From positions 13,834 through 77,833 of the forward strand of contig CABXRG010000001.1 in assembly GCA_902514615.1 (NCBI GenBank): a stretch of DNA of 64,000 bases, in the 5' to 3' direction. The position numbers and the translations under genes were made by a program. The first letter of the stretch is position 1. Each line of letters opens with the position of its first letter. The notes beneath the pieces are model-generated. The model saw nothing but the letters and a program-made list of their open reading frames with translations. It was not told the origin of the DNA and made no database searches. Below, piece after piece: positions 13,793 to 48,778 of the stretch. Source of the DNA: an uncultured Bacteroidota bacterium (GTDB taxonomy: Bacteria; Bacteroidota; Bacteroidia; Flavobacteriales; Flavobacteriaceae).

Positions 13793-13862
13793 TTTTTTAA
13801 GGTAAAAATAATATATTAAATTTTTAATATTTATATTTTAACTATTGTTTAACTAGAGTATT

Positions 13863-43931: not shown

Positions 43932-44828
43932 TTGAAAAGAATAGCTGCTATTGATATTGGTTCTAATGCTGTAAGAATGCTAATTTGTTATGTAATTCAA
44001 TCAGGAGATAAATTTATATTTCAAAAAAACTCGTATTTAAGATTACCTATAAGACTAGGTGAAGATTCATTTAAAAATGGTATCATCTCAAAATCAAAAA
44101 TTGAAACACTTACTAATTCTATTTTTTCTTTCAAGTATATCATGAAAGTTCATAAAGTTGAAGACTATCAGATCTATGCTACTTCTGCCCTTAGAGAGTC
44201 AAAAAATTCATCAGAAGTAATATCGTTTGTAAAGAGACATACTGGCTTAATAATTAACCTTATTGATGGTTTAAAGGAAGCAGAAACCATTTCAAAAGGT
44301 AATTCCCTTGAAAAAATTGATTTTAATAAAATCTTCTTATATGTTGATGTAGGTGGAGGTAGTACTGAGTATTCAATTTTGAAAAGAGGTAAGCAGAAAC
44401 TATCTAAGTCATTTAAGATAGGTACTGTTAGACTTCTTAATAATTTAGTTGATGATGGAATTATAGAGGAAATAAGTTGCTGGTTAAAATCTAATATAGA
44501 TGGTGATGACAAAATTAAACTATTTGCAACTGGAGGCAACATAAATAAAATTCAATCTATGGCAGGTTCAAAATCAGGTAAACCTATTTCTTATCTTTCA
44601 ATTAAAGATTTGTCTAATACTCTATCTAAATATAATTATCAAGAAAGAATGATAAAGTTTGATTTAAACCCAGATAGAGCTGACGTAATTATTCATGCAT
44701 TAAAAATATTTTTAACTACTATGGAATCAATTCAAGCTAATAAGATGTTTGTTCCAAAGTTAGGTCTTGTTGATGGAATGATTAATGAGATATATTTTGA
44801 AAATAATGGTAGTAAGTTAGATTCTTAA
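43932..44828 (+). CDS. ppx: Exopolyphosphatase (Ppx/GppA family, short form)
   Basis: 298 aa. ASKHA phosphate-1 motif AAIDIGSNAVRM and YVDVGGGSTE. A TTG start is required to retain the first motif. Starts 1 nt after the ppk1 stop. Confidence 0.88.
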   Translation: MKRIAAIDIGSNAVRMLICYVIQSGDKFIFQKNSYLRLPIRLGEDSFKNGIISKSKIETLTNSIFSFKYIMKVHKVEDYQIYATSALRESKNSSEVISFVKRHTGLIINLIDGLKEAETISKGNSLEKIDFNKIFLYVDVGGGSTEYSILKRGKQKLSKSFKIGTVRLLNNLVDDGIIEEISCWLKSNIDGDDKIKLFATGGNINKIQSMAGSKSGKPISYLSIKDLSNTLSKYNYQERMIKFDLNPDRADVIIHALKIFLTTMESIQANKMFVPKLGLVDGMINEIYFENNGSKLDS

Positions 44829-45377
44829 TCTCAGTTCGTCAATTAATAAGCCAATATTTTTGTTGTCTTTTATTATAATTTCTAGTTTGTCTTTACTATC
44901 TAAGTATGATTTTTTTGAATTGTCTTCAGATAACTTAACATCTACAGAAATAGTGTAATTATTAAGCTCTTTAGAAATAAAAGTCTGAATTCTATTTCTG
45001 TAAGCCTTAACTTCTTTAAAATTCATCTTATTAATCGTAGATATAGTTATTATATTATCTTTAATTGAAGGATTATTCATGTTTAATAAAGAGAGAATAT
45101 TATTATTTCCTTTATTTTTTTCTGTATCACAGAATTTTTTCCAGATAATTTGAAAATCATTTTCAGTAAATTCATCTGCAGGAAGCTCTTCTAAATCCTC
45201 ATCTTGTTTATCTTCAGCTGAATTTTTAAAATTAAGACTCGCTAATGAGAGTGATGAGACTTCTTTAGAGACTGGAGGTATAAAAAGCTTTTTATCAATA
45301 TCATTATTCTCTTCTTCTAAAACTTCTGTTACAACAGATTCTTTTAATTCTGAGGTTTTAATTAAGGATTTTTTTTT
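44817..45377 (-). CDS. dnaX: -1-frame continuation of dnaX (tau-specific linker and C-terminal domain); the track shows only its last 87 codons
   Basis: The frame of track ORF 44817..45080 stays open upstream, without a start codon, to the A11 tract (186 sense codons). It encodes KKKSLIKTSELKESVVTEVLEEENNDIDKK...EFTENDFQIIWKKFCD...YLDSKDKLEIIIKDNKNIGLLIDELRLRI. This is an acidic linker plus a domain that resembles the C-terminus of full-length Bacteroidota DnaX, judged from memory rather than a search. Confidence 0.7.
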   Translation of the reverse strand, partial: KKKSLIKTSELKESVVTEVLEEENNDIDKKLFIPPVSKEVSSLSLASLNFKNSAEDKQDEDLEELPADEFTENDFQIIWKKFCDTEKNKGNNNILSLLNMNNPSIKDNIITISTINKMNFKEVKAYRNRIQTFISKELNNYTISVDVKLSEDNSKKSYLDSKDKLEIIIKDNKNIGLLIDELRLRI

Positions 45378-46423
45378 TTAATGCTATCAATTGAAGCTAA
45401 TTTCATTAAGCAAAGCTCTGTATGAATTCTTTTATCATTTATTTTTTGATAGTTTATTAGTGTTTCATTTATAATTTGAATCATCAAAATAATATCATCA
45501 TCTACAAAATCCTTAGAATGTTCAAGATATTTTAGGCTTAATTCATTTTTTAAATCAGAAATTTTATCTGCAGAACCTATTTTGCTTATTAAGATCTCTC
45601 TTAAATGCCTAGATAATCCATTTAAAAAATTAACATCATCAAATCCACGATTAAATATATCGTTGTATTTAGTTAAAATTCTTGGAATATCTTTATTCTT
45701 AATTAAGCTAGATAAATCGAAATAAGTTTCATAATCTAAGACATTTAGATTAGTCGTAACTTCAGTAATTGTTAAATTAGAATCAGTAAAGCTTACTAAT
45801 CTGTCAAACATAGATAGAGAATCTCTTATTGACCCATCTGACTTGTCAGCAATTAATGCTATAGAATTTTCATCATAATTAATTTTTTTGTCTTTGCATA
45901 TATTAGTCAATAGTTTCATTATTGAAGGGCTGTCAACTTTTTTAAAGTCATAAATCTGACATCTAGATAAAATTGTGGGAATTATTTTATTTTTTTCGGT
46001 TGTTGCTAGAATAAAAACTACATGTTTAGGAGGCTCTTCTAATGATTTTAAAAAGGCGTTAAATGCAGCATTAGACAGCATATGAACTTCGTCAATTATA
46101 TAGACTTTATATTTACCAATTTGAGGTGGTATACGAATTTGATCAGTAATATTCCTTATATCTTCTACAGAATTATTAGATGCAGCATCTAGCTCAAAAA
46201 TATTATACTCAAAGTCTTGCTCTAAATTATTTATTTTTTTTGCAAGAATTCTTGCACATGATGTCTTACCTACGCCTCTTGGTCCACAGAAAAGAAGTGC
46301 TTGTGGAACTTGATCATTCTTAATAGCATTTGAAAGTGTCTTAACAATAGCATCTTGTCCTATCATGTCACTAAAATCTTTAGGTCTATATTCAGAAGCT
46401 GATGAAATTGAGGAACTATTCAT
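45362..46423 (-). CDS. dnaX: DNA polymerase III subunit gamma/tau, zero-frame product (domains I-III, 353 aa)
   Basis: Walker A GPRGVGKTS, Walker B IIDEVHML, SRC/sensor TILSRCQ and domain III helices. The frame ends ...DSIKKKNP* two codons after the A11 tract. Confidence 0.95.
   Translation of the reverse strand: MNSSSISSASEYRPKDFSDMIGQDAIVKTLSNAIKNDQVPQALLFCGPRGVGKTSCARILAKKINNLEQDFEYNIFELDAASNNSVEDIRNITDQIRIPPQIGKYKVYIIDEVHMLSNAAFNAFLKSLEEPPKHVVFILATTEKNKIIPTILSRCQIYDFKKVDSPSIMKLLTNICKDKKINYDENSIALIADKSDGSIRDSLSMFDRLVSFTDSNLTITEVTTNLNVLDYETYFDLSSLIKNKDIPRILTKYNDIFNRGFDDVNFLNGLSRHLREILISKIGSADKISDLKNELSLKYLEHSKDFVDDDIILMIQIINETLINYQKINDKRIHTELCLMKLASIDSIKKKNP
45369..45379 (-). other. dnaX: A11 homopolymer: candidate -1 frameshift / transcriptional slippage site in dnaX
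   Basis: The minus strand reads ATT AAA AAA AAA AAT CCT TAA. The 0 frame and +1 frame both stop within 4 codons of the tract. The -1 frame opens exactly at the tract. Confidence 0.6.
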
Positions 46424-46498
46424 TTAAACAAATATAGAGATTGAGAAAAATTAATTCTCAAATCATGTTTTTTTTTTAATAAAATTATCAACAAATAC

Positions 46499-46506: not shown

Positions 46507-46510
46507 TCAT

Positions 46511-46792
46511 GCAAGCCGTCTTATCGCTGTTTTTTCAGAGGAAAGTCCGGACACCAGAGAGCAATGCAGCGGGTAACACCCGTCATCTATTTATAGAGAG
46601 GAATAGTGCAACAGAAAGTATGTACAGGTAATGCTGTAGTGGAATCTTGTAAACTCTGCATGGTGAAACGCCAAGTAAATCTACATTTTAAAATTGCTCG
46701 TTTTAAGTAGAAGGGTAGGCGGTATGAATGTGATAGTAATATTACATCTAGATAAATGATAAGATTCGACAGAATCCGGCTTATAGGCTTGC
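46511..46792 (+). ncRNA. rnpB: RNase P RNA, bacterial type A, compact (about 282 nt)
   Basis: Universal P4 strands GAGGAAAGUCCGGAC (5') and ACAGAAUCCGGCUUA (3'). Also conserved are GGUAACACCCG, AGUGCAACAGAAAG, GUAAACUC and AAGGGUAGGC. P1 pairs 5' GCAAGCC with 3' GGCUUGC, and P2 pairs GUCUUAUC with GAUAAGAU. The region is locally GC-enriched relative to its surroundings. Confidence 0.9.
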
Positions 46793-47326
46793 TTTTTTTA
46801 TAATTGACAGAATTGATGAGCCATACTTTCGTTCCTCTACATTGTTTATATAATCTTGTAATGTAATTTTAGAACTATGTTCAATTATTATTTCACCCTC
46901 ATCAATAAGCATTTCATTATCTTTTATTAATTCTATCATCTCAACATATTGTTTTGTATAAAAATTATAAGGGGGGTCTGCGAAAATTAGATTAAATTTT
47001 TTTTTATTTTTTTTTAAAAAAATTAAAAAATCTAGTCTTTTTGTTTGAATATCAAAGTCAAGTTTTGATGCAGTTTTATTAATAAATCTTATGCAGTTAA
47101 GATTATTGTCAACTGAAATAACTTCACGGCATCCTCTAGATGCAAATTCATATGAAATATTACCAGTCCCTGAAAATAAATCTAAAACAATCAAGTCGCT
47201 ATAATTAAATTTATTTGAGATTATGTTAAAGAGCGATTCTTTGACCTTATCAGTAGTTGGTCTTACTGGAAGATTTTTGGGCGCTTTAATAGAAATACTT
47301 TTTTTAATCCCTGATATAATTCTCAT
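46781..47326 (-). CDS. rsmD: 16S rRNA (guanine966-N2)-methyltransferase
   Basis: 181 aa. MRIISGIKKS...RPTTDKVKESLFNII at the N-terminus, SAM motif DLFSGTGNISYEFASRG and catalytic FADPPY. Confidence 0.88.
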   Translation of the reverse strand: MRIISGIKKSISIKAPKNLPVRPTTDKVKESLFNIISNKFNYSDLIVLDLFSGTGNISYEFASRGCREVISVDNNLNCIRFINKTASKLDFDIQTKRLDFLIFLKKNKKKFNLIFADPPYNFYTKQYVEMIELIKDNEMLIDEGEIIIEHSSKITLQDYINNVEERKYGSSILSIIKKASL

Positions 47327-48053
47327 TTATAATTGAAAAAAATGGTGATTCGTGACTTTCTGAAGAATTATTGTTATATCCTATAAAATCAATCTCTGAG
47401 TACTTAGAAGCTATATTATAATAATTTTCAAATCTTTCAAATTTACCCAAAAATGTAATTTTATCTTTCTTGTTTGAACCTTCATAGTTTTTCAAAACAA
47501 AGAATAGGTAATATAAAAACTCATTTTCATCATTTACATTAAATGAATTAAAGAAAATAAATTCATCATTATTAAAAATGATTATATCAAATGATTTATA
47601 ATTAAAGTTTACAAAAAAAGAAAATCCATAAGTTTCGGCATTTCTATTCTCTATAAAATCATATAGATAGGTGAAATAATTATTATGAGAATACTCCAAT
47701 TTCGATTTTTCTAATATCTCATTCAATTTATCTGAAATTGAATAAACTACTTTAATTTTTTTATCATAAGACGTATCTGATAAAATAGTTTTTAATGAAA
47801 CTGTATTGGTTATTAAGTATTTATATTTAAGATCTTCATCAAAATAGATAGAGGGTACTACAGATGGGCGTGAATTAAAATTAATTATTTCAATAAATTC
47901 TGAAGATGAGTTTAATATGAAAACAAGGGATTTTGAAACGAATTTATCATCATCAAAATCTACCCTTATAACATCATTTATCGATTTAAGATGAAAGAAA
48001 GATTCAAATTGATAAATAAATGTTTTATTGATTTTACTCTTTATTTTTTGCAT
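47304..48053 (-). CDS. Conserved hypothetical protein (possibly DUF3822 family)
   Basis: 249 aa from the ATG at 48053 (the track ORF begins one codon earlier at a TTG). No motif was recognised. The DUF3822 suggestion rests only on the remembered flavobacterial neighbourhood upstream of rsmD. Confidence 0.45.
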   Translation of the reverse strand: MQKIKSKINKTFIYQFESFFHLKSINDVIRVDFDDDKFVSKSLVFILNSSSEFIEIINFNSRPSVVPSIYFDEDLKYKYLITNTVSLKTILSDTSYDKKIKVVYSISDKLNEILEKSKLEYSHNNYFTYLYDFIENRNAETYGFSFFVNFNYKSFDIIIFNNDEFIFFNSFNVNDENEFLYYLFFVLKNYEGSNKKDKITFLGKFERFENYYNIASKYSEIDFIGYNNNSSESHESPFFSIINENYIRD

Positions 48054-48690
48054 CAAAAATAGTAGGCCAGTTTCCGCTAGTACTTACCTCAGTCATTGAT
48101 CCCAAAATTATCTCAGTACCATTAACGCCATCAACTGAAATAACCTTATTTTCTTGATCTAATAAGTCTTTATTTTGATCAAAAAGAACAATATTTTTCA
48201 TGACTTTAACTTCAAAAACTGGTACTTGATAGCCATTTTTATCTATAATGTCTGATTTGATAGAAAATTCTGAGTCTGTTCCATCTATTGGAACTTTTGC
48301 CATCATCTTATATGAATCGTTTTGACCGAAAAGAGAATCTTTTACAGAAACAAATCCTAGTGTATCAACAATTTCGACTTCCTTTAGCATATCAATTCTA
48401 TAAGTTCTATTATATTCTAGATAAGATGAATCTCTTTTTTCAATAAGTGTAAATATACCATTATCAACAAAGCTGACTAAACTATCAAAGTTACTTGCAT
48501 AGAAGCCTCTAACGTCCTTATGAGCAATTTGAGCATTTCTTATATCTTTTAACCTATCAATAACTTGAGTGTATCTCTCATTTTTAACTTGGTTAAACTT
48601 TATAGGTCCATTAATAGAGCTGTATATTTGTGTCGCAAAAAATATTGATGTCAACCACAAAAAAAATTCTAATGCACGTTTTTTATTCAT
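48034..48690 (-). CDS. Hypothetical N-terminally anchored/exported protein
   Basis: Start taken at the ATG at 48690 (MNKKRALEFFLWLTSIFFATQIYSS is a hydrophobic anchor). The track ORF starts at an upstream TTG and runs through an A12 tract. No recognisable domain. Confidence 0.5.
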   Translation of the reverse strand: MNKKRALEFFLWLTSIFFATQIYSSINGPIKFNQVKNERYTQVIDRLKDIRNAQIAHKDVRGFYASNFDSLVSFVDNGIFTLIEKRDSSYLEYNRTYRIDMLKEVEIVDTLGFVSVKDSLFGQNDSYKMMAKVPIDGTDSEFSIKSDIIDKNGYQVPVFEVKVMKNIVLFDQNKDLLDQENKVISVDGVNGTEIILGSMTEVSTSGNWPTIFDAKNKE

Positions 48691-48778
48691 CTTAGTAATT
48701 TTTGATTTTAACAAATCTACAATTTTTTTTTTTTCGTGAAACAATATATAAATGAATTATATTAGAAAAATATTTTAA

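Follow-up and report, generated by a model that had tools for sequence, protein, structure and literature searches.

A conserved poly(A) tract at the gamma/tau boundary of a frame-broken flavobacterial dnaX gene, a candidate site of programmed slippage

The 64,000-nt stretch of DNA analyzed here (the window; positions 13,834 to 77,833 of contig CABXRG010000001.1, GenBank assembly GCA_902514615.1, from an uncultured member of the Flavobacteriaceae) carries on its minus strand a dnaX gene that is interrupted at a run of eleven adenines (A11). The break at A11 is real and conserved. In the unshifted frame the gene encodes a gamma-like clamp-loader subunit, and the sequence assigned to the C-terminus of tau follows in the -1 frame. 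We propose that the tract is a programmed slippage site from which gamma is made by default and tau by the addition of one A, probably during transcription; taken as a whole, including the transcriptional route, this statement appears to us rather probable. That tau is produced by some form of recoding is considered highly likely. Slippage itself, the level at which it would occur (RNA or ribosome), its efficiency, and the tau:gamma ratio are what we infer from the nucleotide sequence.

The frame break and its conservation

The 0-frame open reading frame (ORF) of dnaX (45362 to 46423, including the TAA; this and all following features of the gene lie on the minus strand) encodes 353 aa with the clamp-loader domains I–III. 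The junction reads GAT AGC ATT AAA AAA AAA AAT CCT TAA TTA AAA. The A11 putative slippage tract (45369 to 45379), read as AAA AAA AAA AA- in the 0 frame, is followed two codons later by the TAA (45362 to 45364) that ends the gamma-like product, and the +1 frame runs into a TAA 11 nt past the tract (45358 to 45360) within the conserved TTAATTAA. The -1 frame is shut just 5′ of the tract by a TAA (45378 to 45380) that shares the tract's first two A's, and from there it is open for 186 codons until the TAA at 44817 to 44819. The -1-frame continuation (44817 to 45368) comprises 183 codons past the tract and this TAA, and it is predicted to encode an acidic linker and a C-terminal domain (Pfam DUF8439/NF011531 C-terminus). 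In the dnaX 3′ region, 19 and 34 stops were counted in the other two frames versus none in the -1 frame; as the DNA has a GC content of 27–29%, an open -1 frame of 186 codons is therefore not explained by chance. In the ORF list, only an 87-aa ORF (45080 to 44817) was found downstream of the dnaX ORF, with 281 nt between them without a call. An earlier note, made from the letters of this DNA, had described the junction with its tract and 0-frame stop, the gap in the ORF track, the open -1 frame, and two in-frame A9 runs in an rsmD-like ORF; all of these were reproduced, and the +1 frame, said there to stop almost at once, did so at the position given above.

A homopolymer census of the 64-kb window, 94% of which is covered by ORFs of at least 100 aa, gave 33, 5, 2, 1, and 1 A/T runs for lengths of 8, 9, 10, 11, and 12, respectively. 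The A11 of dnaX was the sole A/T run of at least 10 within a solid coding region; the others (two of 10 and one of 12) were all located in leaders or spacers.

The gene is dnaX, and its unshifted product stops after domain III. This product matched PF13177, PF22608 (DnaX lid domain), and PF12169 (domain III), as well as TIGR02397 (dnaX_nterm) with an E value of 6e-109, in line with the earlier description of a protein ending after clamp-loader domains I–III. It also aligned with positions 5–364 of NF011531 (PRK14971; E = 3e-136), the NCBIfam model of 614 positions for the Bacteroidota-type gamma/tau subunit. The -1-frame continuation matched positions 462–612 of the same model (E = 2.7e-14), which bears out the tau-like identity that the earlier note had put forward and had proposed to check by such a search. 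Joining the 5′ part to the continuation via one extra A (...SIKKKKSLIKTSELK...) gives a conceptual fusion of 535 aa with a predicted mass of 61.2 kDa versus 40.2 kDa for the short form of 353 aa. The fusion, of the size anticipated for tau, aligned over 99–100% of the length with uninterrupted relatives of 532–565 aa at 67–86% identity. These relatives carry a precomputed PF28557 (DUF8439) at their C-terminus; a Pfam-A scan of the continuation gave no significant match in the copy used, which predates PF28557. The exact 353-aa protein was without a record in the look-up, and close relatives were used instead. A sequence comparison of the continuation with the PDB returned only noise (E ≥1). 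In an AlphaFold2 model of the continuation, built with 19 sequences, the mean predicted local distance difference test score (pLDDT) was 63, with values of 70–83 for the domain formed by residues 70–186. On the basis of the model match, the continuation is assigned to the C-terminus of a Bacteroidota-type tau, and its C-terminal domain would then be expected to bind the polymerase and the helicase (Pol III alpha, DnaB), as in tau.

The trivial alternative, already named in the earlier note, is a sequencing or assembly error: the genome would truly contain A12 (or A9), and dnaX would be an ordinary, uninterrupted gene. Homopolymers of 11 are prone to error, and rare contigs with A12 (L057, P0001-P0003) or A10 (L058, L013, P0121) do occur in closely related lineages. 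However, two independent assemblies of the same species (L064 from TARA with 98.9% and L059 from Logan with 98.7% nucleotide identity) both carry A11. In a scan of metagenome contigs for the junction pattern, in which a gap of 0–2 nt was left free, 13 of 13 matching contigs had an 11-nt spacer (seven A11, six A10-C). A further scan with one genome per GTDB species identified the same break in 15 species representatives at 77–90% protein identity, comprising single-cell genomes and metagenome-assembled genomes (MAGs). In these, an A10 or A11 run is followed 7–8 nt later by the 0-frame stop, and the -1 continuation extends over 181–185 codons; an alignment of related dnaX loci, suggested earlier as a check, thus revealed conservation of the tract, the 0-frame stop, and the -1 continuation. 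Dozens of clusters of the 353-aa protein (87–99% identity) derive from independent ENA, JGI, TARA, NCBI, and Logan assemblies, one of them being found on 182 contigs and another having 343 members. The source records of the relatives name uncultured marine Flavobacteriales ('Cryomorphaceae bacterium MED-G11', 'Flavobacteriales bacterium MED-G121', 'Candidatus Marisimplicoccus sp.').

A11, or A10 with one other base, is therefore present in two same-species assemblies, all 13 contigs, 15 representatives, and hundreds of database members, and the broken states with shorter runs (A10-G, A10-C) keep the same frame offset. Moreover, in-frame relatives consistently contain A11-C, and an 11-base run is therefore assembled reproducibly. 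The length-variant contigs are short or single; the A12 contig inspected had a coverage of 2.7x, and an A10 variant was located on a 23-kb contig. With independent assemblies and cross-species conservation in agreement, a miscall is excluded for practical purposes, and we rate the error explanation as extremely improbable. The A10 and A12 variants themselves represent either real low-frequency alleles or assembly noise.

Public assemblies of one species differ in tract length (A12 in L057, A10 in L058, A11 in L012). In A10 variants (P0121, 13 members), the tau frame gains a TTG start four codons before the tract. The A10 of L013, with an offset of +1, was considered as proof that shifts occur in both directions and was dismissed as weak, because a contig of the same lineage (L060) has A11.

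Selection on the continuation and on the tract

Purifying selection on the continuation and its lack of an independent start are shown by the substitution pattern and the distribution of start codons. In 12 frame-broken species, the ratio of nonsynonymous to synonymous substitution rates (dN/dS) of the continuation was 0.11–0.30 at a dS of approximately 1–2, compared with 0.05–0.11 for the 5′ part, and no stop was found in 181–185 codons versus 18–44 stops in the other two frames. Of 17 frame-broken loci, 11 have the first ATG, GTG, or TTG of the continuation at codon 96–99; the window is one of these, with codon 97. Invariant or near-invariant residues precede codon 96 (K30 L31 F32, S44, S47, L65 P66, T71, W79 K81 F82 C83). 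The second codon past the tract is TTA, TTG, CTA, or CTG across loci; it varies as a synonymous Leu set and is therefore not a conserved start.

These data bear on the alternative that the gene is truly split or decaying. Only a gamma-like protein would then be formed from the 5′ part, and the 3′ part would be a pseudogene remnant or a reinitiated small protein; a variant of this explanation invokes switching of the tract length at the DNA level. It is in keeping with the annotation of the 3′ part by NCBI and gene callers as separate hypothetical proteins of 122–200 aa, with TTG codons at positions 2 and 8 of the continuation in L024 and L025, and with the tract-length variants held in public assemblies. 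However, a remnant is not expected to stay open for approximately 185 codons at the dN/dS values given above with a dS above 1, and invariant motifs are found in residues 30–98 although mostly no canonical start precedes codon 96–99. The C-terminal domain of E. coli tau ties the polymerase to the clamp loader, a link that would be impossible for an untethered domain. Rather than cycling, the broken allele has been kept through speciation. Because of the purifying selection, the conserved residues before the first start, and the drifting Leu codon, a pseudogene remnant or a self-started small protein is very unlikely, and the split-gene explanation in all its variants retains only a slim probability. 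The continuation would thus be translated, with entry solely from upstream.

The tract itself was compared in 56 Flavobacteriales loci, namely those in which its position was examinable, in-frame ones included. In each of the 56, a run of A10–A12 marks the exact end of domain III, and this holds for in-frame relatives at 38–46% identity as well. The Lys codons inside the run were all AAA in every locus, with AAG only at the run end (A10-G types), versus 17% AAG among Lys codons elsewhere in the dnaX genes. Flanking codons often lengthen the run (TTA-AAA AAA AAA-ATA, CCA-...-AAT, GAA-...-AAG), and because they add A's, it is never shorter than 10. Both non-tau frames are shut within 19 nt of the tract in all 56 loci, compared with 25% of randomly chosen positions in these genes; for the clade of the window the distance is at most 12 nt, via TTAATTAA, versus a background of 6%. 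The constant position, the codon choice, and the steep fall of A/T run counts with length in the window indicate that the tract is selected.

The frame state differs within the marine clade. In-frame forms are ATC A11 C TCT (L001 clade), ATA A12 C TCT (L004), C A11 TCT (L002), and A10 CT CTA (L007). Broken forms are ATT A11 TCC (the window's clade), A10 G TCT (L020-23, L025, L051), A10 C TCC (L016), and ACT A11 TCT (L024), as well as ATA A10 T TCT in L073-75, which is an uninterrupted A11 when the A of ATA is counted and belongs to a lineage with records in 86 blocks of the collection. A T precedes the tract in all frame-broken relatives, and every well-supported broken state is offset alike, the -1 frame corresponding to one missing A. 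In neighbor-joining trees, the broken L073 groups with the in-frame L001 (bootstrap 98–100%), and the in-frame L002 falls inside a broken clade together with L024 and L025 (bootstrap 88–100%); these trees did not resolve how the three main clades branch at depth. As the two groupings are well supported and the deep order is not, the marine clade must have switched frame state three times or more, the one-base difference that makes gamma the default being gained or reverted. A single origin of the broken state, also considered, is ruled out by the same two groupings.

Taken further, the A10–A12 run could be an ancient bidirectional slippage site across the Flavobacteriales that yields both gamma and tau. 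Slippage would then be efficient (tens of percent), and the default product would flip by single-base changes at little cost, as happened three or more times in a single abundant marine clade of genus level. We see the arguments for and against this broader statement as evenly balanced. If it is true, the clade represents a natural titration series for the tau requirement of the replisome, measurable in existing ocean metatranscriptomes.

Possible routes to tau and genomic context

In the proposed scheme, unslipped A11 transcripts would be translated into the 353-aa gamma-like subunit, ending at the stop two codons past the tract. Slippage of RNA polymerase on A11 would generate A12 (more rarely A9) transcripts, from which the 535-aa tau would be formed by normal translation, and ribosomal -1 slippage on A_AAA_AAA may add to the tau pool. 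The in-frame relatives would operate in the reverse, Thermus-like mode with tau as the default product; because both other frames stop at once, their slipped transcripts would give gamma. The threshold reported for efficient RNA-polymerase slippage is an A/T run of at least nine (PMC1088944; PMC5009743 section 21), and such a homopolymer is present on the sense strand of the window dnaX (A11) and its relatives (A10–A12).

The main rival explanation keeps the recoding site but has tau arise chiefly when ribosomes shift by -1 on A_AAA_AAA (or on an A_AAA_AAG-like site in the A10-G lineages), with transcripts that are faithful A11 copies. A heptamer of the X_XXY_YYZ type is indeed present in the 0 frame as A_AAA_AAA within the tract, and it corresponds to the classic Lys heptamer of E. 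coli dnaX at the same protein position (PMC3711429, PMC5009743). In vitro, approximately 14–16% frameshifting is reported for the E. coli dnaX site stripped of its stimulators (bioRxiv 10.1101/2025.10.02.679949). In addition, it is the -1 frame that is needed in 14 of the 15 species representatives, in L073-75, and in all 13 metagenome contigs.

The transcriptional route is nevertheless favored for three reasons. First, the run is at least 10 in all 56 loci, although 7 would suffice for ribosomal slippage. Second, neither a conserved RNA structure nor a Shine-Dalgarno-like element was found. The 171 nt around the tract folded no better than shuffled sequences (z +0.29); the consensus structure calculated for 21 species contained three pairs at -0.37 kcal/mol and no stem-loop stimulator, and the sequence diverges freely from approximately 20 nt past the tract. 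In the 20 nt preceding it (GCTTCAATTGATAGCATT), neither GGAG nor GAGG nor AGGA occurs, and hence no Shine-Dalgarno-like stimulator is present. Third, both alternative frames are shut in the in-frame relatives, as in Thermus, a layout that suits mRNA of heterogeneous length. Furthermore, A_AAA_AAA was reported to be less shift-prone in E. coli than A_AAA_AAG (PMC5009743, section 31). We therefore regard a mainly ribosomal origin of tau as unlikely, though far from negligible.

Several points weigh against programmed transcriptional slippage as proposed here. The slippage is predicted from DNA sequence, and no experimental demonstration of the mechanism in any Bacteroidota was found in the literature. 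The shift direction is uniform (-1, one extra A) in all well-supported broken states, which according to a rule of thumb of Antonov et al. points to ribosomal frameshifting (PMC3711429), and A_AAA_AAA in the tract is a valid -1 heptamer. In a genome in which 83% of the Lys codons are AAA, long A runs are to some extent to be expected from KKK. The function of the C-terminal domain is assigned through family membership; a Foldseek search of the continuation model against the PDB gave a best E value of 0.09, and no solved tau domain was matched. Finally, the locus was read from a 64-kb window, and a second intact dnaX elsewhere in the genome is possible.

For proteomic detection of a fusion product, the earlier note had put forward the junction peptide KKKKSLIKTSELK. 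This target is unsuitable as the junction is too Lys-rich and would be fragmented by trypsin. Peptides predicted for the part of the continuation that lies past the tract and ahead of the first Met are LFIPPVSK, EVSSLSLASLNFK, and NSAEDKQDEDLEELPADEFTENDFQIIWK.

With regard to the surroundings of the gene, a class A RNase P RNA (RF00010, 187 bits, full length) is encoded at 46508 to 46799 on the plus strand, divergent from and just upstream of dnaX; it shares 19 nt with the end of the rsmD-like ORF (46781 to 47326) on the opposite strand. The dnaX leader contains an A10 run (46468 to 46477, minus strand) 45–55 nt before the ATG at 46423, and relatives have A8–A10 at the same leader distance (2438 to 2446 in loci with the dnaX start near 2501); the run may belong to the kind of A-rich leader or promoter that is typical of Bacteroidota. 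The window's longest homopolymer (A12, 48723 to 48734, minus strand) is placed by the ORF finder inside an ORF (48034 to 48744), and it probably belongs to a leader rather than to coding sequence, the likely ATG (MNKKRALEFF...) being located approximately 35 nt downstream. A convergent gene of the Ppx/GppA family (43932 to 44828, plus strand) shares 12 nt with the end of the dnaX continuation. The gene order DUF3822, rsmD-like, dnaX, ppx, ppk was the same in all relatives inspected. Flavobacterial-type dnaX genes were also found in MAGs labeled Gammaproteobacteria and Campylobacteraceae (L046, PBKO01000002.1; L055, CAKZOX010000123.1), labels that probably reflect binning contamination.

Comparison with known systems

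The arrangement of the window dnaX is not new and reveals no new mechanism: it belongs to a class published by Antonov et al. (2013, NAR 41:6514, PMC3711429), and sections 7 and 21 of PMC5009743 give further precedent. In that work, two-ORF dnaX genes with a -1 offset at the DNA level were reported for 17 genes from 12 genera, nine of them with A10, and poly-A junctions were presented for Flavobacterium johnsoniae, F. psychrophilum, Cytophaga hutchinsonii, Capnocytophaga ochracea (A9 as printed), Chlorobium and several Chlorobi, and Coraliomargarita (Suppl. Fig. S3). The published genes and the window share the gene, the break after domain III, the -1 offset, a poly-A run of approximately 10, a 0-frame stop directly after the run, and a downstream ORF that corresponds to the tau C-terminus; F. 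johnsoniae has the A10-G form also seen in L020-L023, L025, and L051. Antonov et al. proposed transcriptional realignment by analogy with Thermus (PMC3711429), and this is the mechanism proposed for both sets. The window differs in its A11, in its origin from an uncultured streamlined marine clade (Candidatus Marisimplicoccus/'Cryomorphaceae MED-G11') outside that study, and in not being annotated as recoded. The denser sampling of this clade adds the presence of the tract in all in-frame relatives and the flips of the frame state.

The dnaX gene of Thermus thermophilus (Larsen et al. 2000, as summarized in PMC1088944 and in section 21 of PMC5009743) contains an A9 run with stops in both other frames, and gamma derives from slipped transcripts. 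Both this gene and the window dnaX have an A run at the gamma/tau boundary with close stops in both non-tau frames, and in either case a single gene lacking E. coli-type RNA stimulators would yield two products. However, Thermus DNA encodes tau in a single ORF and slippage leads to gamma, whereas the window DNA encodes gamma and slippage would lead to tau. The in-frame relatives (L001-L011, L026-L054) have the Thermus layout, of which the window is the mirror image.

E. coli dnaX resembles the window in the gene and boundary concerned, in a slippery sequence of Lys codons, and in N-terminal clamp-loader domains shared by both products. Its A_AAA_AAG site is accompanied by an upstream Shine-Dalgarno-like element and a downstream stem-loop, both of which are absent from the window; the roles of the products are reversed, and the run in the window is far longer than a heptamer.

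The earlier note had also likened the site to the rescue of frameshifted genes by poly(A) tracts in endosymbionts. The systems have in common that an out-of-frame gene would be restored in a fraction of the transcripts, as in Blochmannia and Buchnera (PMC3017870). Numerous Blochmannia genes are affected, and in its dnaX the frameshift is situated downstream of the gamma site (PMC3017870). The likeness did not hold beyond this: endosymbionts have many affected genes and genome erosion, whereas the window has one tract at a fixed functional boundary, kept in position in 56 of 56 loci, in-frame relatives included, and no other homopolymer-broken gene in 64 kb. Genome-wide poly(A) breakage of the endosymbiont type was likewise rejected after the homopolymer census of the window. 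In mxiE of Shigella flexneri, as proposed for the window, two overlapping ORFs are fused by a nontemplated nucleotide added in a homopolymer run, and the longer product depends on slippage (PMC1088944); mxiE is an unrelated gene with a T/U run and serves a regulatory role rather than setting subunit ratios.

What is new here is an unannotated member of the class, a tract that is universal in 56 Flavobacteriales loci irrespective of frame, and a default product that flipped three or more times in one marine clade. Public records annotate a truncated 'gamma/tau' and an orphan 'hypothetical protein'; a recoding site, if accepted, corrects the annotation of an essential replication gene, and its recognition averts false pseudogene or assembly-error calls in the quality control of MAGs. 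The clade further lends itself to testing whether the gamma form is really needed by bacteria outside Proteobacteria and Thermus. With slippage close to 50%, a single nucleotide can exchange the roles of the two dnaX products, the default and the recoded one, and Atkins et al. name dnaX as an example of that reversal (PMC5009743). A tract that is kept in either frame state, with off-frames always shut and the default switched repeatedly, provides comparative support for this idea of a one-nucleotide reversal (PMC5009743).

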